DNA of 64,000 nucleotides from Gemmatimonadota bacterium (lineage in GTDB: Bacteria; Gemmatimonadota; Gemmatimonadetes; Gemmatimonadales; GWC2-71-9), in NCBI GenBank assembly GCA_036679605.1, contig JAZDCZ010000419.1, positions 202,038 to 266,037 on the forward strand, in the 5' to 3' direction. Positions 7,289 to 30,655 of this stretch are shown here, piece by piece (position 1 is the stretch's first letter; each line of letters starts with the position of its first letter). Made by a program: the position numbers and the translations under genes. Under the pieces are notes generated by a model, which was given only the letters and a program-made list of their open reading frames with translations, ran no database searches and had not been told where the DNA came from.

Positions 7289-8529
7289 TGTCAATCTGCC
7301 ACACCGCTAGAGTCTTAGTCGTCGAACTGCTCAGTGTTGCTCTGATGGCATGCAGCGGCGATCGCCGCCCGGGAGTGATCGTGACCGACAGTGCAGGCGT
7401 GATGATCATCGAAAACCAAGAACCCATGTGGCAAGGCGAAGATTGGCGCATAGGAAACGACCCCGTACTCGAGATCGGTACCAGAGACAGCCCTTCTCAT
7501 TATCAGTTTGACCGGATTGAACACGTTCTGCGGCTCGATGACGGCGTCATCGTGGTTGCAGATGGTGGCTCCGCGGAACTACGCTTCTTTGACTCGTCCG
7601 GACACTTCGTCACCTCCTCGGGTGGACGAGGAAACGCTCCGGGCGAGTACCAGATGATCGAATCGATCGGCGCAGGACCGGGTGACTCCATCTGGGTCTA
7701 CGACTTTGGTGCTCGTCGCTTCACCGTGCTCACCTCCAACGGAATAGTCTCGAGAACGATGACCCTCGATGGTACTCTGTCCAACGTCGGAGCGGTCGGA
7801 CGACTCGACGATGGCAGTTTCGTGGTACGGGAGTATTGGTCAAGTCGCAGACGCGACATGGAACTCGTGACCGGCCTTCGTCGCGACCCCGCAGCCATCG
7901 CGCGTTACTCTCCCGACGGCCTCACAATCGATACTATCGGACTCTTTCCCGGACGAGAGGTCTTCATCGGGAGCGAGAATGGCCGTGCAGTGATGAGCGC
8001 CCCCTTGTTTGCTCACAGCACCAGCGCGGCGGTAGCCAACAACACAGTGATTATTGGAGATCAGAACACTTTCCAGATCGGGCTCTACAGCTCCGATGGA
8101 GTCCTGACACGCCTAGTTCGCTTGCTCGATATCGATCTGCGCTTGACTGAACAAGACATAGCACAGCTGAAGCAACAACGTTTGGCCGCACAGCCACCCG
8201 CTACTCGTCCAAGCTTGAGCAACCACATGGACAGAATGGACGTTCCAGCAAACAGACCTGCATACCGGGAGATCGTCGTAGACGAACTAGGCAACCTTTG
8301 GGTCGAAGATTACCAACCCGAGCCACGCAAGTCTTCTCGTTGGACAATTGTCGCAAGTGACGGGCGCTTGCTAGGTACCATCGGAACACCGCCAACATTC
8401 AAACTTCTGGAGGTTGGAGACACGTGGGTTCTGGGAGTGGGCTTGGATGAGGTGGATGTCGAGTACGTTAGACTGTACAAGCTAGACAAGAGCACACTCG
8501 ACTCCGAGGATCAAGACCAGCTTAGATGA
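7288..8529 (+). CDS. 6-bladed beta-propeller lipoprotein
   Basis: TGATG-coupled start at 7288; lipobox LMAC; GGRGNAPGEY; C-terminal VLGV..DE.DVEYVRLY. Confidence 0.8.
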   Translation: MSICHTARVLVVELLSVALMACSGDRRPGVIVTDSAGVMIIENQEPMWQGEDWRIGNDPVLEIGTRDSPSHYQFDRIEHVLRLDDGVIVVADGGSAELRFFDSSGHFVTSSGGRGNAPGEYQMIESIGAGPGDSIWVYDFGARRFTVLTSNGIVSRTMTLDGTLSNVGAVGRLDDGSFVVREYWSSRRRDMELVTGLRRDPAAIARYSPDGLTIDTIGLFPGREVFIGSENGRAVMSAPLFAHSTSAAVANNTVIIGDQNTFQIGLYSSDGVLTRLVRLLDIDLRLTEQDIAQLKQQRLAAQPPATRPSLSNHMDRMDVPANRPAYREIVVDELGNLWVEDYQPEPRKSSRWTIVASDGRLLGTIGTPPTFKLLEVGDTWVLGVGLDEVDVEYVRLYKLDKSTLDSEDQDQLR

Positions 8530-12591: not shown

Positions 12592-13680
12592 ATGCCGCAA
12601 ACGGGGTTGATAGAGATGAACAGTCGGCTGGAACATGGAAGGTTGGTAACACTGAGAGGACAGACCCGCAAAGGTGCTGTCCTCTCAGTAATCGCACTGA
12701 CGTTTGCACTGGCGTCGGAGGCGGCAGGTCAGGTAAATCCGACAACACCACCCCCAATAAGCGGTCACTCTCTCACGTTCGAAGATATATCTTCTGCCGA
12801 CGTTCTTGCACGTGCGCACCTGATCCGTGATGAGATAGAACTCATTCGATTCGAGATGGGGAGACCGACCGCGGGACCATCTGAGTTCGACGTGCGTAAT
12901 GCATCGCCCCGTGAAGTCATGTTTCAGGCTTTCACTCTGTTCTTGAAAGCGAGTGAACTTCAGTTCGAGCTGGCGGGTACCTCGCCAGTGCCGCTGCAGT
13001 TGGAGTTGCCGCAAGAGGTGAGGCAGTTACATGTGTGGAGGGTGCTGGAAGTCGCTTACCAGCGAATCCTCACCGTGCGGAGGGAACTCGACATATCCGA
13101 CCCCGTTGTCGAGCGGAGGCAGCCGCCATCTGCTGCTCCGACTGATGTCTTTCTAGCTATTGCCCAGGCAAACCGCCAATTGGACCAGTTGCTCAGCGAG
13201 CGCCTGGCGCCACGGGATGTGTTCTATCAGGTAAAGCTGGCTTCAAATTATGCCGTCCGCCTCCTTCAGCAATTTCCGGGAGCCCGAGTGATCCCTCCAG
13301 CACCCATGTTCGAACGTGGCAAACGACCTGTCGACGTGTTCAACCTACTACTCGCTAACTACGAGAAACTTCAGGGGGTCGCCATGTACTCCAGGATCGA
13401 GACTTTGAGCCTGGAGGTGACTAATCACGATACAGAGTGGGCAGGTCAAAACGAGGTCTCGCCGAGCGAGGTATACAACATTGCCATATTACTCGTCTCG
13501 GAGCTTGCCTACCTACACGCGCAGCTCGACTATTCCGATGCTCCGACCCCTGCCCGTGATTCCGGGGTGAAGGTGCCTGCGCACGTATATCAGCAGGCCC
13601 GGATTCTCCAACTTCAGCTGCAGGAACTCGAAAAGTTGGTGCACAAGAACCCCGATTGGCTCGCCGGAAGACTGAACTAG
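12592..13680 (+). CDS. Exported hypothetical alpha-helical repeat protein
   Basis: Hydrophobic signal segment; about 8 P-x-[DEH]-V-[FYM]-like initiated helices; start codon uncertain. Confidence 0.7.
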   Translation: MPQTGLIEMNSRLEHGRLVTLRGQTRKGAVLSVIALTFALASEAAGQVNPTTPPPISGHSLTFEDISSADVLARAHLIRDEIELIRFEMGRPTAGPSEFDVRNASPREVMFQAFTLFLKASELQFELAGTSPVPLQLELPQEVRQLHVWRVLEVAYQRILTVRRELDISDPVVERRQPPSAAPTDVFLAIAQANRQLDQLLSERLAPRDVFYQVKLASNYAVRLLQQFPGARVIPPAPMFERGKRPVDVFNLLLANYEKLQGVAMYSRIETLSLEVTNHDTEWAGQNEVSPSEVYNIAILLVSELAYLHAQLDYSDAPTPARDSGVKVPAHVYQQARILQLQLQELEKLVHKNPDWLAGRLN

Positions 13681-17688: not shown

Positions 17689-18831
17689 TTGCAAGCATAC
17701 GCGGGAAGTAGGCTCAATTTGAAGAGAACGGACGCAAGCGACCTTTGGCGTCACCACCTCCAGGATGAGGCCGACGCCGCGTTCCTATACCGAATTCTGG
17801 CTGACGCGGAACCCACCGACAAGAGGAGTGATCTGTACCGTCGTCTGGCCGATGTCGAGGACCGGCATTCAAAGCTCTGGTGCGAGGTTCTGGAACAACA
17901 TGGCCATGAGGCGCCCGTGCCAGGTCCCTCGTTCAGAGCGAGGCTGCTCGCCAAGATAGCAACAATGTTCGGTCCCACTCTGCTGCTACCACTGCTGCTG
18001 AGAGAAGAAGGTCTCGAGGTTAAGGGATACCTCGACATGTACCGACAAAGTGAACCCGGCACTGCGCGCGACACCGCTCTCACCTTGGCAAAGGAATCAG
18101 CCGAACATGCGACGGCGCTGGGCCAGCTTTCAGATGCGGTGGGTGAGCCGTGGCACAGCACTGGGTCGGGTGGTTTTCTCCGCAACGTCATCTATGGGTT
18201 CAATGACGGGTTGACGGCTAACTTCGGCTTGGTTGCGGGTGTTATCGGAGCGGCGTTCGAGTCTCACATCGTGCTCGTGTCGGGCTTGGCAGGAATGATT
18301 GCGGATGCTCTATCGATGGGTTCCTCGGGATACTTGGCTGCGAAAACCGAACGCGAGGTTTATGCAAACGAGATCGCGATGGAGCGCGAAGAGATTCGGC
18401 TCATGCCCGAACTCGAGGAAGAGGAACTTGCACTGCTGTACGAGGCCAAGGGTGTCGAGACCCAGCGCGCCCACGAGATGGCACACGACATTATGCGAGA
18501 CCCTGAGCGCGCGCTAGCCGAAAAGGTGCGCGAAGAACTCAAAATAGGTGATGCACACACTACACCTGTCAACGAAGGTCTCATTACCGGTATCGCTACT
18601 GCGGTTGGAGCGTTCATACCCTTCGCTCCGTTTCTCTTCATGGAGGGTCAGGCCGCAGCGCTCACTGCTTTCTTGCTTGCGATGACCTCGCACTTTGCCG
18701 TGGGTGCGGCAAGGAGTTTCTTCACCGGGCGCGGACTATTCAAGAGCGGCTTAGATATGTTTGTGGTCGGACTCGGCGTTGCCGTGGTGGGCTACCTGGT
18801 TGGTGACCTTGTCGCCAAGGCGTTGACCTGA
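17689..18831 (+). CDS. Ferritin/rubrerythrin-like domain fused to VIT1/CCC1 metal transporter
   Basis: N-terminal E..EDRH..E..EH diiron-like residues; LRNVIYGFNDGL and ALSMGSSGYL VIT1 motifs; alternative start TTG 17719. Confidence 0.9.
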   Translation: MQAYAGSRLNLKRTDASDLWRHHLQDEADAAFLYRILADAEPTDKRSDLYRRLADVEDRHSKLWCEVLEQHGHEAPVPGPSFRARLLAKIATMFGPTLLLPLLLREEGLEVKGYLDMYRQSEPGTARDTALTLAKESAEHATALGQLSDAVGEPWHSTGSGGFLRNVIYGFNDGLTANFGLVAGVIGAAFESHIVLVSGLAGMIADALSMGSSGYLAAKTEREVYANEIAMEREEIRLMPELEEEELALLYEAKGVETQRAHEMAHDIMRDPERALAEKVREELKIGDAHTTPVNEGLITGIATAVGAFIPFAPFLFMEGQAAALTAFLLAMTSHFAVGAARSFFTGRGLFKSGLDMFVVGLGVAVVGYLVGDLVAKALT

Positions 18832-18915
18832 CTAGACCACGAGATTAACCAACCGGTCCTGAACGTAAATCGATTTTTTCACGTCGCGACCATCCAAGGA
18901 CCGGCGCACCGCATC
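18831..18915 (-). repeat. Orphan duplicate of the leuS 3' end (att-like direct repeat, copy 1)
   Basis: 73/85 nt identical to 28210-28294; encodes DAVRRSLDGRDVKKSIYVQDRLVNLVV*. Confidence 0.95.
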
Positions 18916-18952
18916 GTGCAGTCGATCCGAAGATTGGGTTCGCTTGGTACGG

Positions 18953-19060
18953 TCACTGGAAGCAGAAGCCGAACTCAGTAACAGTATATGTGTATTGGTC
19001 ACTTGCCGTACTTTCACCATCGTTTACTTCAACCTTTATCTCGGGCACCGCGGCCATCAT
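18953..19060 (-). pseudogene. Orphan C-terminal fragment resembling the tail of the island subtilase
   Basis: EIKVEVNDGESTASDQYTYTVTEFGFCFQ* aligns with TLRLNVLDSGGADGFDQLSATVNSQAPPCLN*. Confidence 0.5.
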
Positions 19061-19100
19061 GGTCCTGTCGCTGTGCAGAACGGCGGGTAGTGCGACGGCG

Positions 19101-20357
19101 TTAACCAGTGGGATCCACCACTTTCCCGATAAAGAGAATGGTCCCCGAAATCCGCTCGCGCAGCACGAAGAGGAACGGCTGGTCGATGACGAACGGCGGC
19201 GGCTCACTGATCATGCCGAAGCTGACGGACGTCACCGCCGCCGCTTCCGTGCCCACCTCGTCCACCTTGACAAACGTCTTGTGTTGGACCGTACGGATGA
19301 AGAGCCCAGCGCCGGGAGTGATGTTGCTGAAGTCTGCCAGCGCTGCGTCGAATGCAATCCCCATCCCCAGCGCCGAGAGCACGTCGTTCATTGTGATCTT
19401 GTACTCGAACTGGAACTTGGGCATCACCACGATCTTGTTTGCGCTGTCGACCTCGAGCCCGGCGGTCCACGCCTGCCAGCGATCGCGATCGAACGCGGCG
19501 ATCACTTCGTCTAGCGTGACACCCGCTGCTGGCACCGCCGCCACCATCGTGAACGCCCCACCGCCGTACGGCATCTCGATCACGTTCGCCAGTTGGTCGC
19601 CGCTGATCCGAACGGGTACCGGGTCCGCATGCGACATGGTGGGGACCGACCTCTCCGTGCCATCTCTTAACGTGAACGGCCGGTCGCTGGTGAGCGACTT
19701 GTCGAACTGGTTGGTCCAGTCACCCTTGAAGAACACGGCGTTGATCACGAACAGCATGGTTGAGCGATCGATGGGCCTCGGCGCGATCGAATCGATCCGT
19801 CCGTTGGTGTGATCCCTTACCCATCCATCGATAATGTCGGGCGCGTTGGGGGCGCCGAAATCCAGGGCCTCCACCTGAGCATCGAAAAAGGTGGTGGCCG
19901 CGTCCAAGAAGGTGGGGAGCACGGGGGCCTCGGGCCGATGCCATATGGAGTTGGCGAGATTGAACGTCACCCGGCGATCCAGATTGACCAACAGGTCGAT
20001 CAAGCCGCGGTAGCCGTCATTGACCTGGTCGATGGCAAGCCCCTCGAATCCCAAGGTCTTGGCCATCGAGTCTCTCGTCGCTCCGGCGGCGCCATTGTAC
20101 GTCATGCCGAGCGCCATGCTCACGCTCAACGGCGAGATAAAGAGGTTTTCGTCGGGATTGGCCTGGGCATCCACCGCGCGGAACAGACGCATGGCGAAGG
20201 AATTGTCGGACTCCACCAACGCCAGCTCCGCCGCGGTCAGCTCCCGGGGCAACACTTCGATGGGTCCCATGGGTCCTAAGGAGTTGCCACCACCACCGCA
20301 GGCAACGGCGAAACCGATGACGGGCACGAACGCGATACGTTTACAGACACGCTTCAT
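19101..20357 (-). CDS. Serpin (serine protease inhibitor), lipoprotein
   Basis: Lipobox AVAC; NLFISPLS, NAVFFKGDW, hinge DEVGTEAAAVT, FVIDQPFLF. Confidence 0.95.
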   Translation of the reverse strand: MKRVCKRIAFVPVIGFAVACGGGGNSLGPMGPIEVLPRELTAAELALVESDNSFAMRLFRAVDAQANPDENLFISPLSVSMALGMTYNGAAGATRDSMAKTLGFEGLAIDQVNDGYRGLIDLLVNLDRRVTFNLANSIWHRPEAPVLPTFLDAATTFFDAQVEALDFGAPNAPDIIDGWVRDHTNGRIDSIAPRPIDRSTMLFVINAVFFKGDWTNQFDKSLTSDRPFTLRDGTERSVPTMSHADPVPVRISGDQLANVIEMPYGGGAFTMVAAVPAAGVTLDEVIAAFDRDRWQAWTAGLEVDSANKIVVMPKFQFEYKITMNDVLSALGMGIAFDAALADFSNITPGAGLFIRTVQHKTFVKVDEVGTEAAAVTSVSFGMISEPPPFVIDQPFLFVLRERISGTILFIGKVVDPTG

Positions 20358-20420
20358 GATTGGGTACCTCCGTTATCAAGACAATACACACAGTCACGTA
20401 GACCTGTCGCGGTTGGCCGG

Positions 20421-21581
20421 CTATGGTGGCGTCACGGCCCACAGCCCCGCGCGGGTCCCGACGAGCAGCCGACCGTGGGCCGCATCGACCGCCGTCGCCG
20501 TCCCCGTCGCGCCCAAGGCCCCCCGGGGCACGGCGAGCGAGTCCCAACTCGCGCCGCCATTCGTCGTCCGGTACCACCCCAGGTCCGTCAGTTCCCGGAA
20601 GGTGCCGTCGGGATTCTTTTCGAATTCAAGGAACACGGTGGCCGCATAGAGCACATCGTTGAGCTCGGCGAAACCCGCCACCGCACCACGCGGACCCGCG
20701 GCACAGTCCCACGAGCCCCTTGCACCCGCCTCGTCAGATTGCATCAGCCCTAACTCGGCCCCGAGGAACAGTCGGTCTGGCACGTTGGGGGCCAGGGCGA
20801 GTGCGTTGGTCGGCGTCTCGACGACCACGCTGTTGCATGTGGGAACTCCTGCGTCCCAGGTCTCGCCCCAGTCTGTGCTAAAAACGACAAACGGAACGAA
20901 GATGTTGCCCTGCCCCGCCACCCAGAGCAGGCCTGTGCGCGCCGGATCGATCAGGATGTCCACGTGCCACGCGCAAATGTTGAAGCTTCCGAACACGAAC
21001 TGCCACGTCTCTCCGGCATCGAGCGAGCGCAGCACGCCGTGGCAGTTGCTCATGAACACCCGCTGCGCGTTGCCGGGGTCGACCTCCAGGTCGTCAACGA
21101 AGACGCGGTACGGGTTGCGGGACTCCGTCGCCAGCCCCCCGTCAAACGGCACCCACGACTCCCCCCGGTCGAAGCTGGCGAAGACCGCGGCGCTCGTTGT
21201 GTCTTCCTTGGAGCCGTTGCGAAACGTCACGCCCGCGAGGAGGCGCGGCGGGTCGGCCGGAACATAGAGCAGCGCCTTCGGGATGAGGTGGTTGTGCCAG
21301 GCTTGCGGACCCAGCGCCGTCCACCCGCCGTCCGACTCGAGCCGGAAGATCCCGTGGTCGTTCGTGCCCGCGAACAGTCCCCAGGGCGTTACGGCGACCT
21401 CGGCTATCCACTCCGACTCGAGCCCCAGCAACGTCCAGCAGCCGCTGTCGAGTTCCAGCGGGCATACCTGCGAAGAAGATAGGCTATCCGAGCAGGCGGC
21501 GAACATGCCCGCCACAGAAACGACGACGACGGAGCGAACCAGCCAATCCGCCACACGGCCGGAAATGTGTTGCCGTGCCAT
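20421..21581 (-). CDS. BNR/Asp-box repeat beta-propeller lipoprotein
   Basis: AAAGGAG RBS before ATG 21581; lipobox FAAC; Asp-boxes SFDRGESW, SLDAGETW, STDWGETW, TTNGGASW. Confidence 0.8.
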   Translation of the reverse strand: MARQHISGRVADWLVRSVVVVSVAGMFAACSDSLSSSQVCPLELDSGCWTLLGLESEWIAEVAVTPWGLFAGTNDHGIFRLESDGGWTALGPQAWHNHLIPKALLYVPADPPRLLAGVTFRNGSKEDTTSAAVFASFDRGESWVPFDGGLATESRNPYRVFVDDLEVDPGNAQRVFMSNCHGVLRSLDAGETWQFVFGSFNICAWHVDILIDPARTGLLWVAGQGNIFVPFVVFSTDWGETWDAGVPTCNSVVVETPTNALALAPNVPDRLFLGAELGLMQSDEAGARGSWDCAAGPRGAVAGFAELNDVLYAATVFLEFEKNPDGTFRELTDLGWYRTTNGGASWDSLAVPRGALGATGTATAVDAAHGRLLVGTRAGLWAVTPP

Positions 21582-21744
21582 ATGAGCGCTCCTTTGATGT
21601 TTAAGGATTACCGAAGCCTCACCCGCGACGGCCCGCCACCGTGCCGCCGGGGTCAACCGCCCGCACACGAACGCACCTCCTCTGTTTGAACTAACCCCAT
21701 GCCCGATGGAAAGTTGCAGGGGTCCGGCGGCACCGCGGGCCGGT

Positions 21745-23452
21745 TCAGTTCAGACACGGCGGGGCCTGAGAGTTGACGGTAGCAGACAACTGATCGAACC
21801 CGTCGGCACCACCGCTATCCAACACGTTGAGCCTCAAGGTGTAACGCGACAGATCTCCCGTCCAGACGGTGACGTAACTGTCGCTCCCTATCGGAACGCC
21901 ATTCCTGCCACTGATATGAGTACATTCCCGTGCCACCAGATACCGCCGAGTCATAGAAGCAGTATTCATCCGGTGGGACCATCGTGGAACCAAAGATCGT
22001 AACATTCAGGGAAGGGGGTGGCGGGGGGTCCGGGACGCCAACGGCGCGCGCCGCGTCGAGCACACCGTGGCCGAGGTAATCGTCCCGCCCGCCCGCGCCC
22101 AGACCATCCGCGGTGTTGAACAGCCGATCCACGATCTGCTGATTCGTCCAGGTTGGATTCTGCTCTCGAAGCAGGGCGGCCGCGCCCGAAACGTGCGGTG
22201 TCGCCATCGAGGTGCCGCACCAACCCGAGGTTTCGTCCTCGTAGCTGTTATTGCCGACCGTGCTCAGGGCCCAAAACGGCGCCGCAAGGTCCACGTAAAC
22301 GCCCTTGTTCGAAGCGACCGTTTGGGATGGATCGTTTGGATATGTGCAGGGACTGCTGCCGGCGAAGCTGCCGTCGGTTTTCACTCCCGAGACGCCGATG
22401 ACATTCGTGTACTCGGCAGGGTAAAAGTTGGTGGGAGATGACTGGGCGCTGCCCCTGTTTCCGGCTGCCGCCACGAGCACGACCCCGTCGCTCCACGCCT
22501 GGGCGACAGCATTCGCCATCCCGGCGTCGAAAACAGTACCCCCCAGGCTCATGCTCAGCACATCGAAAAAAACGCTCGCCTGGATACCAGAGATAATGTC
22601 AGTGGTGGGGCACCCGAACTGAATCGGTCCAGAAAAACAGGCGCCGTAAACGAAGACGTCGGAGGGCGCAACCCCGGGCGCGGCGCCTACCGCTCCGATG
22701 CTGTTGTTGCGCGCGGTGAAGATGCCTAGAACGTGGGAGCCGTGCCAGAACGGACCGTCATCGCAGCCGCCCTCGTTTCCCGCGCAATTGGCGAGTGGCA
22801 CAAGCGGAAGGTCCTGGTGGCCCCGGTCGTGCCCGGTGTCGATGATCTGAATCTTGGCGGTGGCACCGGTCGCGCTGTCCCACGCCTCTGGGGCGCGCAC
22901 GAGATCCATGCCCCATGGTATCGTCTGACCGTTCAGCGATGCCCTCCCGAACGCCTTGATAGGCGCCTCCACGCCCTGCACAGACAACCGCTGGAGCGGT
23001 TCGATATAGTCCACCAGCGGATGGTCGCGCAGAAGCGTAGCCGTCCCAGCCGGCAACAGAACGTGCGCAGCCCCCATGAACCAGTAGAACTCAATGACCG
23101 TGACGCCCCGCTGGGCCAGGACCGCAAGGGCAGCGTCGATCGTGCCCCGGGGAATCGCCTCGCGCCGCCCGGTCTCGAGCGCACGCGGTGAGGCCGGGGT
23201 TTTGAACGCGATCACGGCATGGCCGTCTTCCTCGGCGATCGCCTGCTCCAGTGCGACCGCACTGGTGTCCCAGGGGCGGGGCTCGGGTGGCAGGTCGATC
23301 GTGACGGCCGGGACATCCTGTACCTGAGCTGCTGGCATGCCGGAGAGTCGTGCCGCTACGTCGCTGTCCGCAATAGGCGGATTCGGCAGATCGGAACATG
23401 CCGTCAGTACACTGAGCGCCATGAGCGTGGCGCAGGCGGAACTCCTTACCAT
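21745..23452 (-). CDS. S8 subtilisin-like serine protease, lipoprotein; frameshift near 21907 in the C-terminal beta-rich domain
   Basis: AAGGAGGT RBS; lipobox LTAC; triad IIDTG / HGSHVLG / GTSMATPHVSG; AAAGN; natural-looking tail continues in another frame to the stop at 21745 (as-read frame stops at 21815). Confidence 0.9.
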
Positions 23453-23533
23453 AGTACACCTCCTTGTGATGAAAGGCACCCGAATCGCCATAATGCTCGG
23501 TCAGATGGGCGACGACGATTCTCATGCCTAGCA

Positions 23534-23564
23534 TACAGGGGTCCTGAACACGCCAAAGGTTACA
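23534..23564 (-). promoter_or_regulatory. Island ECF promoter copy A (subtilase unit)
   Basis: TGTAACCTTT-ggcgtgttcagga-CCCCTGTA on the minus strand. Confidence 0.85.
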
Positions 23565-23755
23565 CGCCAAATACGATCACTTTTGCACACACGACTCAAG
23601 TTGTTGCTTTGCAGCAAGTTACGTGTCATGTTCGCGAACTCGAATAGCTCCTCGGCCACGGAACGGTCAGCTGAACGCCCGCTCGAGATCGAAGAGACCA
23701 GGAACCTGGCCGGCGGCTCACAATCGCACCGCGCACCATCAACTGGATCTTCGCA

Positions 23756-23786
23756 TGTAACCTTTGCCGTGTTGAACGCCCCTGTA
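23756..23786 (+). promoter_or_regulatory. Island ECF promoter copy B (peptide unit)
   Basis: TGTAACCTTT-gccgtgttgaacg-CCCCTGTA. Confidence 0.85.
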
Positions 23787-23833
23787 CTGAAGACAGGTGG
23801 TTGACGAGAGGCACTCAACACGGAGGATTCCTC

Positions 23834-24052
23834 ATGCAAGTTCCACTACGTAGACTGATACTTGTCGCTGGTGCCGCGGTCGCTCTGACGGCCATACCCT
23901 TGGCGGTCACAGAGTCTGAAAACCGGGTCTCGCTCGGTGTCAGTGACGCATGCGCTCAGGGTGGTTTCTGCTGTCGCCACGAACAGGGTTCGCTGTGCCC
24001 CAGTAGCATACCGGACGGGCAGCCCAAGGGTGACTACACGCCTTGTGGCTAG
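23834..24052 (+). CDS. Small secreted Cys-rich peptide precursor (72 aa)
   Basis: GGAGG RBS at 23822; RR plus hydrophobic signal; ...VSDACA-QGGFCCRHEQGSLCPSSIPDGQPKGDYTPCG*. Confidence 0.8.
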   Translation: MQVPLRRLILVAGAAVALTAIPLAVTESENRVSLGVSDACAQGGFCCRHEQGSLCPSSIPDGQPKGDYTPCG

Positions 24053-24112
24053 TTAGCTACACTGATCCGACGTTGAGTTCGGGTACGATAAAAGCTGAGT
24101 ATCACCAATCGC

Positions 24113-25228
24113 ATGGGGGCAGTTTTCATGCAATGTAGGTGCACTCTCCGCCGGGTCGGTCTCGCGTGGAGCCTTTCATTGTTAGCGCTGCTCACCCATG
24201 CGTGCGGCAGCGAGTCAACCAGCGGGCTACGGTACGGACCGGCTGAACTCGATCACGCGGCCGTTGGGGTCATTGATGTGAAGAGTAGGACCCTCTTCGA
24301 GTCGGACACCCTCGCGCTTCCCTCTGACATAGCGCTCGTAGGCGACAACGTGGTCGTCATAGACAATGCCAACGAACCCGCCCTATTCGTTGTAGACAGA
24401 ACGAGTGGAGAACTGCTGCGTGCGATCGGGAGGCGTGGAGACGGCCCTGGCGAGTTCCGGCAGCCCTGGACTCTCGACGCTGTTTCGGGTAGCACATCGG
24501 AGGTGTGGGTCTACGACTTGGGATTGGGTAGGCTCACAAAGTTGGATGTAACCACCTCTGAGGACGCCGCAAGCAGCCGGATCGTTAACCTTGGGAGCAA
24601 CGGCGCTACAACGGGTCCGATATGGACCGATGCCAACACGATCGTGAGCCTGGGACTCTTTGCGACCGGACGCCTGGCCGTGTTCAACGTGGACGGCGAG
24701 CGGACGGGCACCTTTGGAGTCGTCCCGCTCGGCCCGTCGACGGTCCCGGCAACGGTGAAGCAGCACGCCTATCAGGCAACACTGGTTCCACATCCCGAGC
24801 GACACCTAATGGCAGCGGTCACGAGACACGCCGGCCGCATCGAGTTATATCGGTCCGACGGCTCGACCGTCGCCATGCTCGACGGCCCGCTGCCCTTCGA
24901 GCCCCGCTACACCGTTGGTTCGAATGCGCGCGCAGCGGTGCTGCGAACCGGAGACGACCTGCGATTTGGTTATATCGACGGAGCGGGCTCTAACAAATAC
25001 ATCTTCGCACTGTTCTCCGGCAGGACACGGGAGGGATTCCCCGGGCGTGCAAACTTCGCTAGGTTCGTACACGTATTCGATTGGAAAGGAACCTTCCAGA
25101 AAGCGCTGCGCCTGGACCACGACGTGCTGAGCATCGCCATAGACAGGGGGTCAACGACTCTGTACGCCGTTACGCACGATCCGACACCGGCAATACTGAG
25201 CTACTCGTTATCCATGTTCGTACCGTAG
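24113..25228 (+). CDS. 6-bladed beta-propeller lipoprotein (BF3164/TolB-like)
   Basis: Lipobox THAC; IGRRGDGPGEF; KYIFALFSG..VHVFDWKG; start may be ATG 24128. Confidence 0.85.
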   Translation: MGAVFMQCRCTLRRVGLAWSLSLLALLTHACGSESTSGLRYGPAELDHAAVGVIDVKSRTLFESDTLALPSDIALVGDNVVVIDNANEPALFVVDRTSGELLRAIGRRGDGPGEFRQPWTLDAVSGSTSEVWVYDLGLGRLTKLDVTTSEDAASSRIVNLGSNGATTGPIWTDANTIVSLGLFATGRLAVFNVDGERTGTFGVVPLGPSTVPATVKQHAYQATLVPHPERHLMAAVTRHAGRIELYRSDGSTVAMLDGPLPFEPRYTVGSNARAAVLRTGDDLRFGYIDGAGSNKYIFALFSGRTREGFPGRANFARFVHVFDWKGTFQKALRLDHDVLSIAIDRGSTTLYAVTHDPTPAILSYSLSMFVP

Positions 25229-25253
25229 GGTTTTCTGGGTACATGCAGCTCGT

Positions 25254-27416
25254 TTAGGAACCGTCGTCTGCCACATTCACAGCGGTAGGCGCGGTTAGAG
25301 CCTCGAGCACGCGCACGATTTCGTCCAAAGAGTTCTCGGACAGCCGTATGCGACTCGACTTGTCCAGCACCAGGTAAAGCGGTGTCTCCCACAGACCGAG
25401 CGCGTCGCGTGCCTTCCCATCCACATGAAAGACTCTCGGTGCGGACGGGTGCTCCTGAACGAAACGGTTGAGAGCTAGGGACTGTGACTCCGCCGTTAAT
25501 ATCAACACGCGAACGCCGCGCGGTTCATAACGGGCAGTGACTTGCTGTAAGCGCGGCAGTTCACTCAGACACGGGGCGCACAACCAGGACCAGAACGCCA
25601 CGAGCGTAACTTGGCCACCCGTGAGTTCGTCAAGTCGATGACTGGCACCCGCCGAGTCGGTCAACTCCACACCACCACGCACAAAGGTGTTACTCGTGCC
25701 GCCGAGAACGCGCTCGTACATCTCGTCTCGTGCGACCCTTGTCAGCTCTGTCCATCGAGCGCCGTTCACGAGGCCGGTCGCCAGCGCCGCAAGCGAATCC
25801 CGGGCAGTAGTCGTGGTATTCGGGTCGACCGCCAGTCTGGCCAACATGCCAACCGCACCGGCCGTATCGGCAATGCCGAGCCTTACCTCGGCCGATACTC
25901 CAAAGACCTCCGTATCCCATCCGGTCGCCGCCGCCTGGTCCAGAGCGTCGAGACCGGCCTCGGTATCGCCCAACTGCACGAGCGCCCTACCTAGCGGTGC
26001 GAGGACTCGGCCACCCTCCGCCTCGTCGTAGCGCCGCTGCTCGCCGATGGTGCGAGTCAGAGGCCGTCTCCAACCGGCATCGGTGTCAGTGCGTGCCAGC
26101 TCATCACGCAGCCGCTCTACAGCGACCCTTCTCAATTCCGGCAGCTCGGCCAGTTGCTTCGCTACGGCAAGTGCCGCCCACGGTTTCAGCGCCACGCGGC
26201 GGTCGGCCCATCGCAGTATCGCGTCTGGGTCTCCCGCCCGCAGTGCCACAGAAAGTCCCATCCGAGGCAGTTGAAAGGAGACTGCGCCAACTTCTTGCCA
26301 CAGACCCTCCAGTTCCCGCAGCGCTCCATCGCGATCGCTCCCATGCGCCGCGATGATCCGAAAGACACGTTGTTGCACTGCCTGAGGATGGCCCGGTGCT
26401 TCAGTTAGCAGCCGATCGCGCCAATAATCGACCCTCCCCGGATCTTGCTCTGCGATGAATCCCAGCCAGTATAGTCCCGCCAACGTGTCGCCGCTAAGCG
26501 AAATGTCATTGGCAAACCGGCTATGCAACTCCTCATAGCGCGCGCTCCAACGTCCGGAGAAATCGGTCATGCCGCGCGATCGGGATAAACTTTTCTCAAA
26601 CCCCGCTAGTCGCGACCAGGCATCGGGATCGTCGGGATATACCTCGGTGGCCCGCCTCGCAGCTTCCAGACCTCCTTGCCAGTTTCGTCCGCTCAAATCG
26701 TTTTGTTGCTGCACCAACGCCCGATAATCCGGCTCGTCGCCATTGAAGACCAGAAGCTCCCACAACGCACCACGGTTGCTGTCAACGCGCGCACCCAGCG
26801 TATCCTCCACCGCGAATACCGCGTACACCACCGAGTCGGGAAGCTGAACGCTGCCCTCGAATCTCCTGCGTCCGACTTTCTCCAGTTGAGCCACCACAAT
26901 CTGTCGGGCGCCGGGATCGTACTCCCGATCGGCAGCCGTCCTGTAGCGAGCGCGGAGTACCAGGCGAGCTTCGCCCGCGAGCATCGAGGTACTGCGGTAC
27001 TCCACAGCAATCAGATCGCCGCGCTCGGGCTTCTCGGGTGTCAAGATCAACTCTCCCGACACCCGCTCGGCCCCCAAGTCCGGAAGCGAGCGAACCAGGA
27101 GAGCGCCTGCGCCCACCAGGGCAACCAGCGCGGCGGCTATCATGCCCAGTCGTTTGGGCAGCGCCGGAAACGGGTCGGACAGCGGCAAAATCACCCGCTC
27201 CCCGGCCGCGCGTCTCGCCAGCACGCGTTGCAGGATTGCGGCAGGCGGTTTCTGTGTTGGAATTGATCGGGCCTGCTCATCCAGAGCCTGAATCGATGCC
27301 ACCGTGTTGCGGCACGGCAGGCAAGCGGCCAAATGCTCGGCTACCCGACTACGTCTCTTGGTGGATAATTCGCCGTCGACGAAACCATGCAGTTCTGAAC
27401 GAGAGAGGTGTCTCAT
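25254..27416 (-). CDS. zf-HC2 anti-sigma / TM / TPR-like helical region / TlpA-like thioredoxin fusion
   Basis: HLSRSELHGFVDGEL..HLAACLPC; TM LGMIAAALVALVGAGALLV; C-terminal TLVAFWSWLCAPCLSELP..ETPLYLVLD; start immediately follows the sigma stop. Confidence 0.85.
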   Translation of the reverse strand: MRHLSRSELHGFVDGELSTKRRSRVAEHLAACLPCRNTVASIQALDEQARSIPTQKPPAAILQRVLARRAAGERVILPLSDPFPALPKRLGMIAAALVALVGAGALLVRSLPDLGAERVSGELILTPEKPERGDLIAVEYRSTSMLAGEARLVLRARYRTAADREYDPGARQIVVAQLEKVGRRRFEGSVQLPDSVVYAVFAVEDTLGARVDSNRGALWELLVFNGDEPDYRALVQQQNDLSGRNWQGGLEAARRATEVYPDDPDAWSRLAGFEKSLSRSRGMTDFSGRWSARYEELHSRFANDISLSGDTLAGLYWLGFIAEQDPGRVDYWRDRLLTEAPGHPQAVQQRVFRIIAAHGSDRDGALRELEGLWQEVGAVSFQLPRMGLSVALRAGDPDAILRWADRRVALKPWAALAVAKQLAELPELRRVAVERLRDELARTDTDAGWRRPLTRTIGEQRRYDEAEGGRVLAPLGRALVQLGDTEAGLDALDQAAATGWDTEVFGVSAEVRLGIADTAGAVGMLARLAVDPNTTTTARDSLAALATGLVNGARWTELTRVARDEMYERVLGGTSNTFVRGGVELTDSAGASHRLDELTGGQVTLVAFWSWLCAPCLSELPRLQQVTARYEPRGVRVLILTAESQSLALNRFVQEHPSAPRVFHVDGKARDALGLWETPLYLVLDKSSRIRLSENSLDEIVRVLEALTAPTAVNVADDGS

Positions 27417-27421
27417 CACCA

Positions 27422-27976
27422 CTAGTCTCCTATGATCCTTCGGAGCATGTCTTTGGCGCGGTACAGCCTGACCTTGGACGTTCCGGTGGTTATACCAACC
27501 ATTCTTGCGATCTCCGAATGTGCATAGCCTCCGATCACCCTCATCACAAAGACAATACGCAGGGATTCCGGAAGATTCGCGATTGCTTCCTCGATCATCA
27601 TGCGGTCCACGTGCCCCGGAGGCTCCTCTGCGGTTTCGCTCGGCGAGAGAACTTCCAGAGGAACCTCGGCTCGCCGCTTTGACGAGCGATTTCTCCGATA
27701 CGCGGTTCTGAATGCCACCGTCTTGATCCACCCTTCCAGACTGCCATGTCCTTTGTATCCGTGCAAAGCCTCCGCCAGGTCCATGAACACATCTTGAACG
27801 ACATCCATGGCGTCTTCGTGCGATTTCGTCAGTCGCACCGCTATACCAAAAACCATTGCTCCAAACCGCTCAAACAGCTCCGCGATGGCCTCCGGCTCGC
27901 CCGACCGCGCCCGGCTCAGGAAAGCGGGTGATTCGAACCGGTCGTTCGCGTCGGTCACCGACAGCGACGCCCCCAT
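27422..27976 (-). CDS. ECF RNA polymerase sigma factor (island)
   Basis: DAMDVVQDVF; GYAHSEIARMVGITTGTSKVRLYRA. Confidence 0.95.
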   Translation of the reverse strand: MGASLSVTDANDRFESPAFLSRARSGEPEAIAELFERFGAMVFGIAVRLTKSHEDAMDVVQDVFMDLAEALHGYKGHGSLEGWIKTVAFRTAYRRNRSSKRRAEVPLEVLSPSETAEEPPGHVDRMMIEEAIANLPESLRIVFVMRVIGGYAHSEIARMVGITTGTSKVRLYRAKDMLRRIIGD

Positions 27977-27998
27977 GGAGGCAACGCGGGCCCTATAC

Positions 27999-28029
27999 TA
28001 CAGGGGCCACGAAGGAGCAAAAGGTTACA
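27999..28029 (-). promoter_or_regulatory. Island ECF promoter copy C (sigma/anti-sigma unit, autoregulatory)
   Basis: TGTAACCTTT-tgctccttcgtgg-CCCCTGTA ending 22 nt upstream of the sigma ATG. Confidence 0.85.
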
Positions 28030-28209
28030 TGACGTCAATTTCATCGACCGGCTAGAATACGCATAAGTCCCCTGTCTTCAAGTCTTTAGCCGCATTGTAC
28101 CGGCGATCGGCGATCGACAGAACCAACGCCATTTCGTATGCGACTATCAGATTGGGACAGGTTGAGATTTCCGGCTCCCTCTGGCGAGAAAACCGCTGGC
28201 TACTCTAGT

Positions 28210-28294
28210 ACTAGACTACGAGATTAACCAACCGATCTTGCACGTAGATCGATTTTCTTACTTCCCGACCATCCAATGCCCGGAGCACCGCATC
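28210..28294 (-). repeat. leuS 3' end (att-like direct repeat, copy 2)
   Basis: Matches 18831-18915 with 12 substitutions and no indels. Confidence 0.95.
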
Positions 28295-30655
28295 ATCTTC
28301 CAAAGCGAACTCGAGCACCTGGTTCTCGGGTAGTCCACGTGTTACGTGAAGTCGAGACCTAACCTTACCGTTAACCTGAACCACCACCACCACATCCTCC
28401 GCATCGGCAAGCGCGGCGTCAGATACAGGCCATTTTGCGTCGAACACGCTGTCGTCATGCCCCAAGCGCTCCCAGGATTCCTCAGAGAAATGTGGAGCAA
28501 ACGGTGCCAACATCACGATCAGCGGTTCCACCATATCGCGATCTACAGAAGCATCGGAATTGTCTTTCGCACCGCTAACGTCACGCAGCAAATTCAGGTA
28601 TTCCATGAGGCCGGCGATCGCGGTGTTGTAGCGCAACTCCTCTGTTGCATCCGTCACCTTGCGGATCGTTTGATGCAATTTCTGTAGCGCTCGACCACTC
28701 TTCGCCTCGGGACGTGGCGAGGCCTGCGACACCAAGCCCCATACTTTGTCCAGAAAGCGACGCATTCCCGAAATTCCGTCGTCTCTGAAATCGCCGCCTT
28801 CCAAGTAGGGTCCGAGGAACATCAGGTACATCCGGAACGTGTCCGCTCCCCATTTCGACAGATAATCATCAGGGATGACGGTGTTGCCGCGGGATTTCGA
28901 CATCTTGGCCCCATCCTTAACGATGGTTCCGTGGGCCCGAAATTTAGGGAATGGTTCTTCGAACGTTATGTGTCCGAGATCGTGCAGCGCCATCGTTATG
29001 AATCGCGAGTACATGAGATGGAGCACCGCGTGTTCGTTACCACCTATATACGATTGTACGGGCAGCCATTTTTTCGTCAACTCCGTGTCGAATGGCCGAT
29101 CCCGAAATTCCGTCGACGGATACCGCAAGAAATACCAAGAGCTATCGAGAAACGTGTCCGAAACGTCGGTTTCGCGCGTGGCTTCTTCTCCACAACTAGG
29201 ACACGGTACCTTGTACCACTCTTCGTGCCGCGCAAGTGGTGATTCGCCCGTCTCGTCGGGTTTGAAATCTTCGATCAACGGTAGCAGCACTGGAAGTTCT
29301 GAGTCGGGAACCGGTACCGTACCACATTCCTTGCAATAGATTACCGGAATGGGCGGTCCCCAGTAACGCTGCCGTGAGATGCACCAGTCGTGTAGCCTAT
29401 ACTGAATCTTAGCCTTGCCAAGTTGCTTTTCCTCCAGCCACTCGCTGACTGATTTCACGGCCTCGCTACATGCCATTCCATCGAACCGTCCACTATTCAC
29501 GATCGTGCCGTCCCAGCCACTGAAGGGAAGGTCCGTGGGTTCCTTAGGCTCTACAACCTGCCTTATCTCCAGGCCAAAGCCCTTGGCAAATTCGTAGTCG
29601 CGTTCGTCATGTGCCGGCACTGCCATGATGGCGCCCGTTCCGTACTCCATTAGCACATAGTCCGCGATCCATATCGGAACGGATTCACCTGTCGCCGGAT
29701 TCCTGGCGTACGTGCCCGTAAAAACCCCGGTCTTGATCTTGTCCCCAACCCTTCGCGACACCAGGTCTTTCTGTATTGCGCTTCGGCGGTATTCGTTGAC
29801 TTCTCTCTGCTGCTCTGCCGCCGTCACCACGTCCACCATCGAATGCTCCGGTGCAAGAACTAGGTATGTAGCACCAAACACCGTATCCGGCCGAGTCGTA
29901 TAGACCCGGATCGGCGTTCCGGATGGAGTCTCGAACACAAGTTCAGCACCTTCGGAGCGTCCAATCCAGTTCTGTTGCATCCTCCGGGTCGACTCGGACC
30001 AATCGAGCCTGCTGAGACTGTCTAGCAGGCGCTGCGCGTACTTGGTAATGGTGAAGAACCATTGATCGAGCATGCGCTGATGTACACGCGTTTCCAAATG
30101 ACGCTCACAATATCCGTCAATCACCTGTTCGTTGGCCAGCACGGTTTTGCACTCCGGACACCAGTTGACCGGCGCTTTTTTCTTCACCGCCAAGCCGGCT
30201 TTGAAAAGCTGCAGAAAGATCCACTGTGTCCAGCAATAGTACTCGGGATCAGTGGTGGTCAGCTCATGGTCCCAGTCGAACATGAGACCCATTCGCTTCA
30301 ACTGCTGCCGGAACCGTGAGATGTTGTCCGGTATCAGTTTGTTGGGGTGAGTGTTCACCTTCAGGGCGAAATTCTCCGAGTGAATCCCGAAGGCATCGAA
30401 TCCTATCGGCTCGAACACATCCCACCCTTGAAGCCGCTTGAACCGGCCGTGGATGTCCACACCTACAAACGCAAAGACATTGCCAACGTGAAGTCCCTCC
30501 GCCGATGGGTAGGGAAACATCATGAGGTTGTAGTATGGCCGCTCGGCTTTACGTAGGTCTACCGAATGCGTGCGGTGCTCCTCCCACCGACCGCGCCATT
30601 TCTCCTCAACGGCCTGGGGGTCGTAGTCAGCTGTCAATTCTTCCCTATCGGACAT
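28211..30655 (-). CDS. leuS: Leucine--tRNA ligase
   Basis: MFPYPS.EGLHVGN (HIGH), TTRPDT and GTGAIMAVPAHD editing domain, DWCISRQRYWG, KMSKS. Confidence 0.98.
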   Translation of the reverse strand: MSDREELTADYDPQAVEEKWRGRWEEHRTHSVDLRKAERPYYNLMMFPYPSAEGLHVGNVFAFVGVDIHGRFKRLQGWDVFEPIGFDAFGIHSENFALKVNTHPNKLIPDNISRFRQQLKRMGLMFDWDHELTTTDPEYYCWTQWIFLQLFKAGLAVKKKAPVNWCPECKTVLANEQVIDGYCERHLETRVHQRMLDQWFFTITKYAQRLLDSLSRLDWSESTRRMQQNWIGRSEGAELVFETPSGTPIRVYTTRPDTVFGATYLVLAPEHSMVDVVTAAEQQREVNEYRRSAIQKDLVSRRVGDKIKTGVFTGTYARNPATGESVPIWIADYVLMEYGTGAIMAVPAHDERDYEFAKGFGLEIRQVVEPKEPTDLPFSGWDGTIVNSGRFDGMACSEAVKSVSEWLEEKQLGKAKIQYRLHDWCISRQRYWGPPIPVIYCKECGTVPVPDSELPVLLPLIEDFKPDETGESPLARHEEWYKVPCPSCGEEATRETDVSDTFLDSSWYFLRYPSTEFRDRPFDTELTKKWLPVQSYIGGNEHAVLHLMYSRFITMALHDLGHITFEEPFPKFRAHGTIVKDGAKMSKSRGNTVIPDDYLSKWGADTFRMYLMFLGPYLEGGDFRDDGISGMRRFLDKVWGLVSQASPRPEAKSGRALQKLHQTIRKVTDATEELRYNTAIAGLMEYLNLLRDVSGAKDNSDASVDRDMVEPLIVMLAPFAPHFSEESWERLGHDDSVFDAKWPVSDAALADAEDVVVVVQVNGKVRSRLHVTRGLPENQVLEFALEDDAVLRALDGREVRKSIYVQDRLVNLVV

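Follow-up and report, generated by a model that had tools for sequence, protein, structure and literature searches.

Three putative promoters and the ECF sigma factor predicted to read them in a gene cluster of Gemmatimonadota

Introduction

ECF sigma factors that act locally and regulate their own expression belong to textbook bacteriology. The B. subtilis sigma-X promoter reads TGTAAC-N17-CGAC, and the anti-sigma factor RsrA is a soluble protein whose own cysteines sense thiol stress in the cytoplasm. To our knowledge, almost nothing has been established experimentally about regulation in Gemmatimonadota.

Promoter choice by ECF sigma factors has been mapped to individual residues: the positions of RpoE Arg171 and Asn84 set bases -31 and -13/-12 of the promoter, and the ECF sigma factors tested proved very sensitive to changes of single promoter bases, as described by Todor et al. 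2020 (PMC7776599). For group ECF231, the promoter predicted by Casas-Pastor et al. 2021 (PMC7826278) consists of TGTAACCTT (-35) and GTTTCCAC (-10), and the same source gives TGTAAC or GTAACC as the -35 of ECF235 (the YlaC group), ECF120 and the Caulobacter SigF of ECF16. Here we analyse a stretch of Gemmatimonadota DNA of 64,000 nt (the window), in which a preliminary description had pointed out three identical ECF-type promoters within one gene cluster.

Results

The motif TGTAACCTTT-N13-CCCCTGTA spans 31 bases, 18 of them fixed, with a 13-nt spacer. An exact pattern search bore out the reported count, coordinates and strands: three copies, without a single mismatch, lie at 23534-23564 (-), 23756-23786 (+) and 27999-28029 (-), and their spacers are not alike. 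No fourth copy is present in the window even when up to three mismatches are allowed. Chance would account for 0.03 copies per shuffle, and three or more copies occurred in 0/100 shuffles. The motif is asymmetric and has no inverted repeat.

Each copy faces a start codon, as the preliminary description had it. Between the sigma-side copy and the ATG of sigma (27976) lie 22 nt; the peptide-side copy is 47 nt from an ATG at 23834 preceded by GGAGG, and the S8-side copy 81 nt from the S8 protease ATG at 23452, which follows an AAGGAGG Shine-Dalgarno sequence, or 42 nt from an in-frame ATG further upstream at 23491. The TAGG said to follow two copies by three bases is indeed found past the copies facing sigma and S8; AAGA takes its place in the peptide copy. 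All three share the geometry TGTAAC-N17-CCCC, with an AAC-core -35, a short -10 and a fixed spacer of ECF type (~16-17 nt), CCCC starting at offset 23 counted from the start of TGTAAC; a consensus scan found no sigma-70-like promoter at any of the three sites. The -35 had been called typical of ECF promoters for its AAC, which agrees with the common occurrence of TGTAAC among ECF groups (PMC7826278). The -10 had been called unusual, and it is so in being CCCC rather than CGT or CGTC, but a C-rich -10 ending in CCAC has already been predicted for ECF231s1 in the same source, so that with respect to both boxes the motif is less odd than first thought.

The sigma-side copy (27999-28029, minus strand), in which the TGTAAC -35 and CCCC -10 core are followed by TGTA-gta-TAGG, is the predicted autoregulatory promoter of a sigma/anti-sigma operon. 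The sigma gene (27422-27976, minus strand) encodes an ECF (group 4) factor of 184 aa with Pfam domains Sigma70_r2 (PF04542) and r4_2 (PF08281); it scores 83.9 bits against TIGR02937 (cutoff 42.9), and its closest solved structures are ECF sigma factors. After a gap of 5 nt from the sigma stop follows, at +1, the gene of an anti-sigma factor of 720 aa (25254-27416, minus strand; zf-HC2, TPR and AhpC-TSA/Redoxin in Pfam). Besides an N-terminal zf-HC2 domain (PF13490, 29.9 bits at a cutoff of 22.2), this protein has a single hydrophobic span and an extensive periplasmic portion that includes TPR, and it ends in a thioredoxin-like domain carrying CAPC. Residues H28, C32 and C35 of its HxxxCxxC are invariant in the family alignment, and this motif, encoded immediately after sigma, places the protein in class I (zinc-finger) of the anti-sigma factors; the ResA-like, anti-sigma and RsrA/ChrR matches in NCBIfam fall below their cutoffs.

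The plus-strand copy (23756-23786), an exact one, is the predicted promoter of a peptide-propeller operon. Its Cys-rich secreted peptide of 72 aa (23834-24052, plus strand) carries in translation a signal peptide and then DACAQGGFCC...GSLC, and has no match in Pfam or NCBIfam; homologues lie upstream of the propeller in sister modules of the same assembly (on contigs C422 and C294, described below) and at five loci of relatives (L015, L026, L027, L029, L038). The second gene (24113-25228, plus strand) encodes a TolB-like/DUF5128 six-bladed beta-propeller with a lipoprotein-like N-terminus (Pfam PF15869, PF17170). The intergenic gap is 60 nt, and the two genes are probably co-transcribed.

The third copy (23534-23564, minus strand), again exact, is the predicted promoter of a transcription unit led by a subtilase (Peptidase_S8, PF00082, E 4e-30) with a lipoprotein-like signal sequence (21815-23452, minus strand). 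On the S8 strand, with no motif of their own, lie genes assigned by Pfam to a BNR/Asp-box protein (20421-21668) and a serpin (19101-20357). The gaps along this run are 146 and 63 nt, and the sole minus-strand terminator-like site among these genes is inside the BNR gene. The BNR and serpin genes possibly belong to the S8 unit, which would make them putative members of the regulon.

Between the two divergent promoters lies a conserved non-coding block (23596-23632) with a GTTGC-TTT-GCAAC-like inverted repeat. Its columns are invariant in the window module (C357) and those on C294 and C422, 32/37 bases being identical on C294, and the remaining spacer does not align. The block was not found at the loci of relatives, and an Rfam scan of 18500-28500 (E up to 1) gave no match. 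A small minus-strand ORF through it was dropped, its C294 copy having no start codon. The block may be the site of a second regulator.

A search with the anti-sigma family returned 28 loci, all from Gemmatimonadota, with the sigma gene directly upstream of the anti-sigma gene in 24 of them. The operon promoter of these relatives reads TGTAA[C/G]-N17-C[A/G]T[C/T]. TGTAAC with at most one mismatch is present at 19 of the 22 first-set loci that have upstream DNA, and the remaining three have a weaker -35 and GCATC at the -10 position; a related motif is thus found at 22/22 loci of this set, and the copy on sigma's own operon, the mark of autoregulation, is conserved in orthologs. The -10 tetramer of the relatives begins at offset 23 in 18/19 loci and at offset 24 in the other, with the words CATC, CATT and CGTT, and the window CCCC occupies exactly this position (offset 23). 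The preliminary description had taken the whole of CCCCTGTA as the -10; its core CCCC aligns with C[A/G]T[C/T] of the relatives, but TGTA falls downstream of the -10 core.

With a weight matrix from the relatives, the window sites score 11.2-13.8 against 17.9-31.5 for the training sites. The low scores are due to the CCCC -10 and make the matrix a poor genome-wide detector of sites of the window module, for which pattern scans were therefore used. A second set of 16 further non-duplicate sigma loci comprised seven scoring at least 17, three weak ones, one (L074) seen by eye further upstream, and five (L068, L070, L072, L092, L093) without a recognisable motif. The same architecture was found again in distant genera; the peptide-propeller pair stands behind its own motif copy at L026 and L029 and within the sigma operon at L015 and L038. 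The sigma factor is patchy within its clade (5/40 relatives), and the sigma/anti-sigma family, as searched, is restricted to Gemmatimonadota, where it occurs in 43/400 other genomes and 20/147 genera.

Aligned to 1or7_A, the window sigma has K168 as the equivalent of RpoE Arg171 and R94 as that of Asn84. Among 42 sigma rows compared, K or R at the Arg171 position pairs with C as the sixth -35 base (15/15 rows) and E with G (14/15); at the Asn84 position, D pairs with G as the second -10 base (6/6), R with C (2/3), and M, V, A, G, I or S with A (27/27). Two exceptions are L094, with R at the Asn84 position yet CAAT, and L084, with A at the Arg171 position yet C. Promoter bases thus co-vary with sigma contact residues, the covariation stemming from few independent events: only ~3-6 independent changes lie behind it, the tree giving five for the -31 base and three for the -12 base, and an independent-pairs sign test found just one pair on well-supported branches and is hence underpowered.

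The assembly searched (6.72 Mb) is a bin of 434 contigs, 6.3% contaminated, so that C294 and C13 can be assigned to the genome of the window only provisionally. The exact motif occurs in it at the three window sites only. Allowing up to three mismatches gives 10 matches (reversed control pattern: 4), and the seven inexact ones all lie in sister modules on C422, C212 and C294. The preliminary description, which had seen no motif outside the cluster, is correct for the exact form and overlooked a family of variants; the pattern-based genome-wide scan confines the former to the cluster and the latter, at this mismatch limit, to the sister modules. A relaxed scan placed 15 of 19 matches inside the C357, C422, C212, C294 and C13 loci (reversed control: 6 matches).

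The modules differ in their tetramers: CCCC three times in the window, CCAC five times on C422 and twice on C212, CACC four times on C294 and CATC once on C13. Every site keeps the tetramer of its own module, without mixing. The -35 boxes on C294 include both TGTAAC and TGTGAC. The C422 and C294 modules carry their own variant at the peptide-propeller promoter position, and sister modules also have theirs at the S8-promoter position, but with different genes behind it. Over ~46 nt, the window's sigma promoter is the same as the C422 and C212 copies save for three bases. A distance of ~44 kb separates the window module from its nearest sister, which is on the same replicon and is 87-98% identical in DNA everywhere but in sigma, the sigma-binding domain and the promoters; C212 holds decayed module copies. 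Between near-identical modules, dN/dS is 0.22 for sigma, 0.37 for the sigma-binding domain and 0.23-0.32 for the remaining genes, whereas dS of sigma and the sigma-binding domain is 3-10 times that of the remaining genes. Positive selection on sigma was rejected, since its dN/dS resembles that of other genes and it is dS that is raised, a combination better explained by gene conversion or mosaic ancestry. Exact motif matches in 13 stretches of metagenome contigs were taken as chance, tblastn (E<=1e-3) with seven proteins of the cluster hitting 0/13.

Discussion

What was observed directly, from the oriented motif and the sigma/anti-sigma pair to the conservation upstream of orthologs and the match between residues and bases, makes it probable that the three copies are the -35 (TGTAAC) and -10 (CCCC) elements of promoters read by the sigma factor at 27422-27976 and driving three units. 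The earlier attribution of the motif to the cluster's own ECF sigma factor gains support from ortholog conservation and the residue-base match in particular. This sigma would drive its own sigma/anti-sigma operon, the operon of the Cys-rich peptide and propeller, and the S8 protease unit. At rest, sigma would be held by the zf-HC2 domain of the membrane anti-sigma factor, and a periplasmic signal would set it free; in view of the thioredoxin-like domain with its CxxC and of the Cys-rich peptide, this signal is likely thiol- or disulfide-related. Transcription is predicted to start a few bases past TGTA, around TAGG, with leaders of ~18, 43 and 77 nt, and autoregulation would amplify the response. 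The regulon would be local, with three units, and the sister modules of the same genome, having CCAC, CACC or CATC at -10, would be partly insulated from the window sigma. To judge from the sequence, the cluster is likely an ordinary local stress switch, notable only for its unusually C-rich -10 box, in which one or two bases are not those of the sister modules in this genome.

Other origins of the motif fit the data poorly. Module duplication is evident and decayed copies exist on C212, but it is barely credible that the window copies are inert repeat debris of local DNA duplication: the 18 fixed bases have been retained while the spacers differ, the flanks of the divergent copies align neither with each other nor with C422, and the architecture recurs in distant genera. 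An operator bound by a non-sigma regulator, repressor or activator, would find some support in the separate conserved inverted-repeat block between the divergent copies, where other regulators probably act. For the motif itself such a role is highly improbable, as it is asymmetric, gene-facing and built with the -35/-10 geometry TGTAAC-N17-tetramer, stands in front of the sigma gene throughout the relatives' loci that have it, and follows sigma residues at positions known to touch DNA. Promoters for another ECF sigma factor encoded elsewhere are very unlikely, given that the modules containing 15/19 relaxed matches carry the family of the window sigma and that the motif co-varies with residues of this family, even though a first look finds 35 candidate sigma places in the assembly and tblastn a further ECF-like gene, of 32% identity, on the window's contig.

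The relation to the sister modules is less clear-cut. The sigma factor of the C422 sister, and perhaps that of C294, might also read the window sites, which would make one cross-wired regulon. The promoters of C357 and C422 differ at no more than two bases, their sigma promoters at three over ~46 nt, and in both of their sigma factors K and R occupy the two mapped specificity positions; moreover, the A/G difference in the C294 -35 may not discriminate, since TGTAAC and TGTGAC are both used there. We nevertheless regard such sharing as doubtful, because all 3+7+4 sites retain the tetramer of their own module, the otherwise near-identical modules diverge precisely in sigma and the sigma-binding domain, and the ECF sigma factors tested are reported to be highly sensitive to one-base promoter changes (PMC7776599).

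Tentatively, and at rather less than even odds, the modules could instead be orthogonal ECF switches on one chromosome. They would be told apart by a -10 code of one to two bases (CCCC/CCAC/CACC/CATC), with Arg at the Asn84 position re-aiming recognition to a C at about -12, while gene conversion homogenised the sensor and output genes of two modules 44 kb apart but spared the specificity cassette, kept distinct by selection. The dS values are 0.13-0.30 for sensor and output genes and 0.83-1.34 for the cassette (sigma, sigma-binding domain and promoters). If it is true, near-identical sensors feed separate outputs, S8 protease and serpin from one module, and from the other a DsbA-like protein, a propeller and the products of efflux genes.

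Returning to the preferred assignment of the three promoters to the cluster's own sigma, a testable regulon can now be proposed for an uncharacterised sigma/anti-sigma family of Gemmatimonadota. With this assignment, the secreted Cys-rich peptide, the beta-propeller and the envelope proteases would all be linked with sigma, which points to a periplasmic circuit of thiol or peptide signalling. Since they pair Arg at the Asn84 position with C at -12, the sister modules allow the published ECF specificity code to be tested on natural variants, and they may supply new orthogonal parts for synthetic circuits.

Comparison with described systems places the cluster among familiar types. ECF25s4, a Gemmatimonadetes subgroup in Casas-Pastor 2021, matches by taxon alone. 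ECF235, ECF120 and ECF16, as described there, share a TGTAAC or GTAACC -35 set 17 nt from a four-base -10; they differ in a CGT-like -10 (TCGTCAT, CGTA) and in their anti-sigma factors (YlaD or DUF1109 NrsF). The SigR-RsrA pair, as far as described, has in common with the window an HxxxCxxC zf-HC2 sigma-binding domain at +1 and a thiol theme; unlike RsrA, the window anti-sigma factor spans the membrane, with its candidate redox module (CAPC) in the periplasm.

ECF231, as presented in PMC7826278, agrees in all nine -35 bases (TGTAACCTT), in a C-rich, non-CGT -10 ending in CCAC as in the C422 module, and in a single-pass zinc-finger anti-sigma factor at +1. It is described from Bacteroidetes and Solibacterales, where the anti-sigma factor has periplasmic HEAT repeats and the neighbours are adhesins, whereas the window belongs to Gemmatimonadota, with TPR and a thioredoxin-like domain in the anti-sigma factor and peptide, propeller and protease genes as neighbours; Pfam calls no HEAT repeat in this anti-sigma factor, and no adhesin genes were noted in the window. 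The likeness to ECF231 lies in the promoter words alone, compared by description, and the main text of PMC7826278 makes no mention of thioredoxin, TPR, Gemmatimonad or TGTAAC.

The autoregulated local ECF regulons described by Todor et al. 2020 (PMC7776599) differ from the window in their -10 and at the Asn84 position, where the window has CCCC and Arg, its sigma factor being known from sequence. They resemble it in a bipartite near-consensus promoter on sigma's own operon and a few linked genes, in specificity residues at the Arg171 and Asn84 equivalents and in a patchy distribution within the clade. The window sigma is, in these respects, a locally acting, self-regulated ECF sigma factor of a kind already known, and the promoter finding itself is ordinary.

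Predicted promoters and gene content of the module

A pattern scan of the window for TGTAACCTTT-N13-CCCCTGTA recovers the three exact copies of the preliminary description, each ahead of a start codon: 27999-28029 (-), 22 nt from the ATG of the ECF sigma gene; 23756-23786 (+), 47 nt from the ATG of a 72-codon ORF; and 23534-23564 (-), 81 nt from the subtilase ATG, which is preceded by a Shine-Dalgarno sequence. The spacers of the three copies are not alike, and TAGG stands three bases past the motif at the sigma and subtilase copies, both as first described. The same scan at up to three mismatches found no other match in the window, and shuffling gave a mean of 0.03 matches, with 0 of 100 shuffles reaching three.

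The sigma gene (27422-27976, -) encodes Sigma70_r2 and r4_2 domains and exceeds the TIGR02937 cutoff. Five bases past its stop begins the gene of a 720-aa anti-sigma factor: a zf-HC2 domain (H28, C32, C35), a single hydrophobic stretch, a large TPR-bearing periplasmic part and, at the C-terminus, a thioredoxin-like domain with CAPC. Convergent with the anti-sigma gene is that of a TolB-like/DUF5128 six-bladed propeller (24113-25228), preceded by the gene of a secreted 72-aa Cys-rich peptide (23834-24052) without a family match. A lipoprotein-like S8 subtilase (21815-23452) is encoded divergently from the peptide, with a BNR protein and then a serpin downstream on the same strand, and leuS (28211-30655) lies past the sigma promoter. 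Positions 21724-22027, which take in the end of the S8 gene and the DNA 3' of it, are 91.6% identical to positions 49169-49478 of contig C311, which also encodes a BNR-like protein (31% identical); the protease unit is evidently present there as a second, partial copy.

The predicted sigma leader (27977-27998) is only ~18 nt long and carries CCTCC, the Shine-Dalgarno complement, immediately 5' of the ATG. Several relatives have the -10 element 15 nt or less from the sigma start codon. The short leader and close -10 suggest leaderless or near-leaderless translation in this sigma family.

Sister modules in the assembly

The motif had not been noticed outside the island, which holds for its exact form, confined to the three window sites in the 6.72-Mb, 434-contig assembly, but not for its variants. 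At up to three mismatches ten matches were found versus four for a reversed control, the seven outside the window all lying on contigs C422, C212 and C294. The relaxed pattern TGT[AG]A[CG][CT]TT-N14-C[ACG][ACT]C gives 19 matches versus 6 for its reverse and 2-13 for eight other spacer lengths, and 15 of the 19 fall within five loci, on C357 (the window's contig, of which it is positions 202038-266037), C422, C212, C294 and C13. The module on C422 is the closest (peptide 86%, propeller 89%, anti-sigma 86% and sigma 64% identical); C294 has the same four genes as the window at 39-56% identity, C13 a sigma (41%) and anti-sigma (35%), and C212 two decayed copies of the promoter and sigma 5' end. 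The -10 tetramer is constant at every site within a module: CCCC at three sites on C357, CCAC at five on C422 and two on C212, CACC at four on C294 and CATC at one on C13. The chance of such perfect sorting of 15 tetramers is ~6e-7, in a calculation that treats the sites as unrelated.

The two C212 copies (129263-129293 and 133310-133340; 5264 and 9311 in the extracted stretch L014) are orphan sigma promoters of the C422 type with decayed sigma 5' ends, one fronting a sigma remnant with ATA for a start codon and a frame break. They sit 5' of uncharacterised ORFs and a DUF5128 propeller, with DsbA-like and CarboxypepD_reg genes also nearby. On C294 a fourth motif copy (12917-12943, +), divergent from the sigma promoter, faces an uncharacterised short ORF; the window has no counterpart because leuS abuts. 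The ~115 nt 5' of the window's sigma promoter (28030-28145), reading …GGTTCTGTCGAT.CGCCGATCGCCGGTACA.TGC…GAAGACAG.GGA, are also kept in C422 and one C212 copy; they either mark where the duplication stops or form an additional control region.

The first 114 nt of C422 are the last 114 nt of C357 (window 63887-64000), a stretch absent from every other contig of the assembly, and a single TolC-like open reading frame, 485 codons long, spans the junction (window 63887-64000 and C422 1-666). C422 continues the window's end on the same replicon: its module begins ~7.4 kb past that end and therefore lies ~44 kb from the window's module. The shared replicon covers C357 and C422, C294 and C13 being placed with the window by the bin only. 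The bin has 6.3% contamination and 6.72 Mb, versus ~3.7 Mb for a same-genus genome and 2-4.6 Mb for family members; possible explanations are a mixture of genomes in the bin or an organism unusually large for its family.

Conservation across the phylum

An alignment of the four modules' anti-sigmas, searched against one genome per species, found 28 loci, all in Gemmatimonadota (Gemmatimonadaceae and Longimicrobiaceae), with a sigma gene immediately 5' in 24 and the remaining four beginning inside the anti-sigma gene. TGTAAC with at most one mismatch lies within 90 nt of the sigma start in 19 of the 22 loci with upstream DNA; the other three (L019, L023 and L034) have a weaker -35 but share GCATC where the -10 lies. 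Counted from the first T, the tetramer C[A/G]T[C/T] stands at offset 23 in 18 of the 19 loci with TGTAAC and at offset 24 in one. The window's CCCC is likewise at offset 23, and CCCCTGTA therefore divides into a four-base core followed by TGTA: the -10 element first proposed contains the predicted core but overextends it. The TGTA extension is confined to the nearest relatives, a clade made up of C357, C422, part of C294, L019 and a second site in L027.

A wider search of 400 other Gemmatimonadota genomes, from 147 genera, recovered the anti-sigma family in 43 genomes and 20 genera. Among 16 new non-duplicate sigma loci, seven have a site scoring at least 17, three a weak site, one a site further upstream recognised by eye, and five no site, the sigma gene adjoining the preceding gene with zero gap in two of these five. 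At E up to 1e-30 the sigma is present in 5 of 40 close relatives and absent from the same-genus genome.

The peptide-propeller pair accompanies the sigma: at L015 and L038 it is part of the sigma operon, and at L026 and L029 it follows a motif copy of its own. Cys-rich peptides of the form (D/N)AC..G.C(C)...GS.C are encoded 5' of the propeller at these four loci, C422, C294 and L027. Genes behind the third promoter differ from module to module: in the window the S8 subtilase, with the BNR protein and serpin as possible further members; a DsbA-like protein in C422, with a further site at a DUF5128 propeller and another at efflux genes; and an S41 Ctp-type protease with a 125-aa Cys-rich protein in C294. 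Between the divergent promoters of the three modules lies a ~37-nt block (window 23596-23632, C294 8171-8207, C422 ~7566-7600), TCAAGTTG.TGC.TTGCA.CAAGTT.CGTGTCA, with a GTTGC-TTT-GCAAC-like inverted repeat, outside which the spacer does not align across the three. C357 and C294 share 96 nt at 85% here, though their proteins are just 39-56% identical; the block may be the site of a second regulator.

Candidate specificity residues and mosaic sister modules

By phmmer the window sigma aligns with E. coli RpoE (1or7_A) ungapped in both relevant segments, placing K168 at RpoE Arg171 and R94 at Asn84 (chain offset of three residues). Promoter bases are numbered -31 and -12 by alignment of AAC and the tetramer with the RpoE promoter. 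In a table of 42 sigma rows, K or R at the Arg171 position goes with C as sixth -35 base (15/15) and E with G (14/15, L023 being ambiguous). G accompanies A, Q or M at L035, L040, L069 and L082, but at the weak site of L084 A is paired with C. At the Asn84 position the second -10 base is G in rows with D (6/6) and A in rows with M, V, A, G, I or S (27/27); R is matched by C in the window and in C422, but by A in L094. The sigma tree shows five changes of the -31 base and six of its residue class, and three of the -12 base against four of its residue class, events too few for an independent-pairs test to reach significance; the telling sister pairs are L031 (K, C) versus L067 (E, G) and L016 (G, A) versus L017 (D, G). 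Todor et al. (PMC7776599) identified Arg171/-31 and Asn84/-13,-12 as specificity pairs, and single changes re-aimed a sigma in their saturation mutagenesis.

Over 23970-27209 the DNA of C357 and C422 is 74-99% identical, mostly 87-98%; identity falls to 57-82% over 27210-28019 (the first ~70 anti-sigma codons, the sigma gene and its promoter) and to 56-61% at the peptide promoter and leader. In the sigma dS is 1.27, 0.83 in the sigma-binding domain and 1.34 in the peptide signal sequence, versus 0.13-0.30 elsewhere. This suggests that the interior was recombined or gene-converted while the specificity parts kept their older divergence; positive selection is rejected for the sigma, dN/dS being 0.16-0.37 throughout and the pattern residing in dS. 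Despite diverged surroundings, the sigma promoter is the same over ~46 nt in C357, C422 and both C212 copies, save A/G in the -35, C/A in the tetramer and one base in TAG[G/A].

The placement and orientation of the motif copies, the conservation of the motif across the phylum and its agreement with the published specificity code support the prediction that these copies are promoters read by the window's ECF sigma. Judging from domain content, the sigma would be set free from a periplasm-sensing, thioredoxin-bearing anti-sigma, autoregulation would provide feedback, and the circuit would be insulated from its sister modules. The -10 code of the sister modules and the spared specificity cassette are the parts that merit testing.

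Comparison with known ECF systems

The preliminary description held the -10 to be unusual. Among the groups described by Casas-Pastor et al. 2021 (PMC7826278), the predicted ECF231s1 promoter is TGTAACCTT / GTTTCCAC, the ECF235 promoter has TGTAAC, that of ECF120 is TGTAACAAA / TCGTCAT and that of Caulobacter SigF GTAACC-CGTA, so that both the -35 and a C-rich -10 have precedent, the latter in ECF231s1. That subgroup occurs in Bacteroidetes and Solibacterales, where its zinc-finger anti-sigma carries HEAT repeats; ECF25s4 is a Gemmatimonadetes subgroup in the same source. In its small linked regulon and patchy distribution, the window sigma resembles the "local" ECF sigmas that Todor et al. 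(PMC7776599) characterise by these two features.
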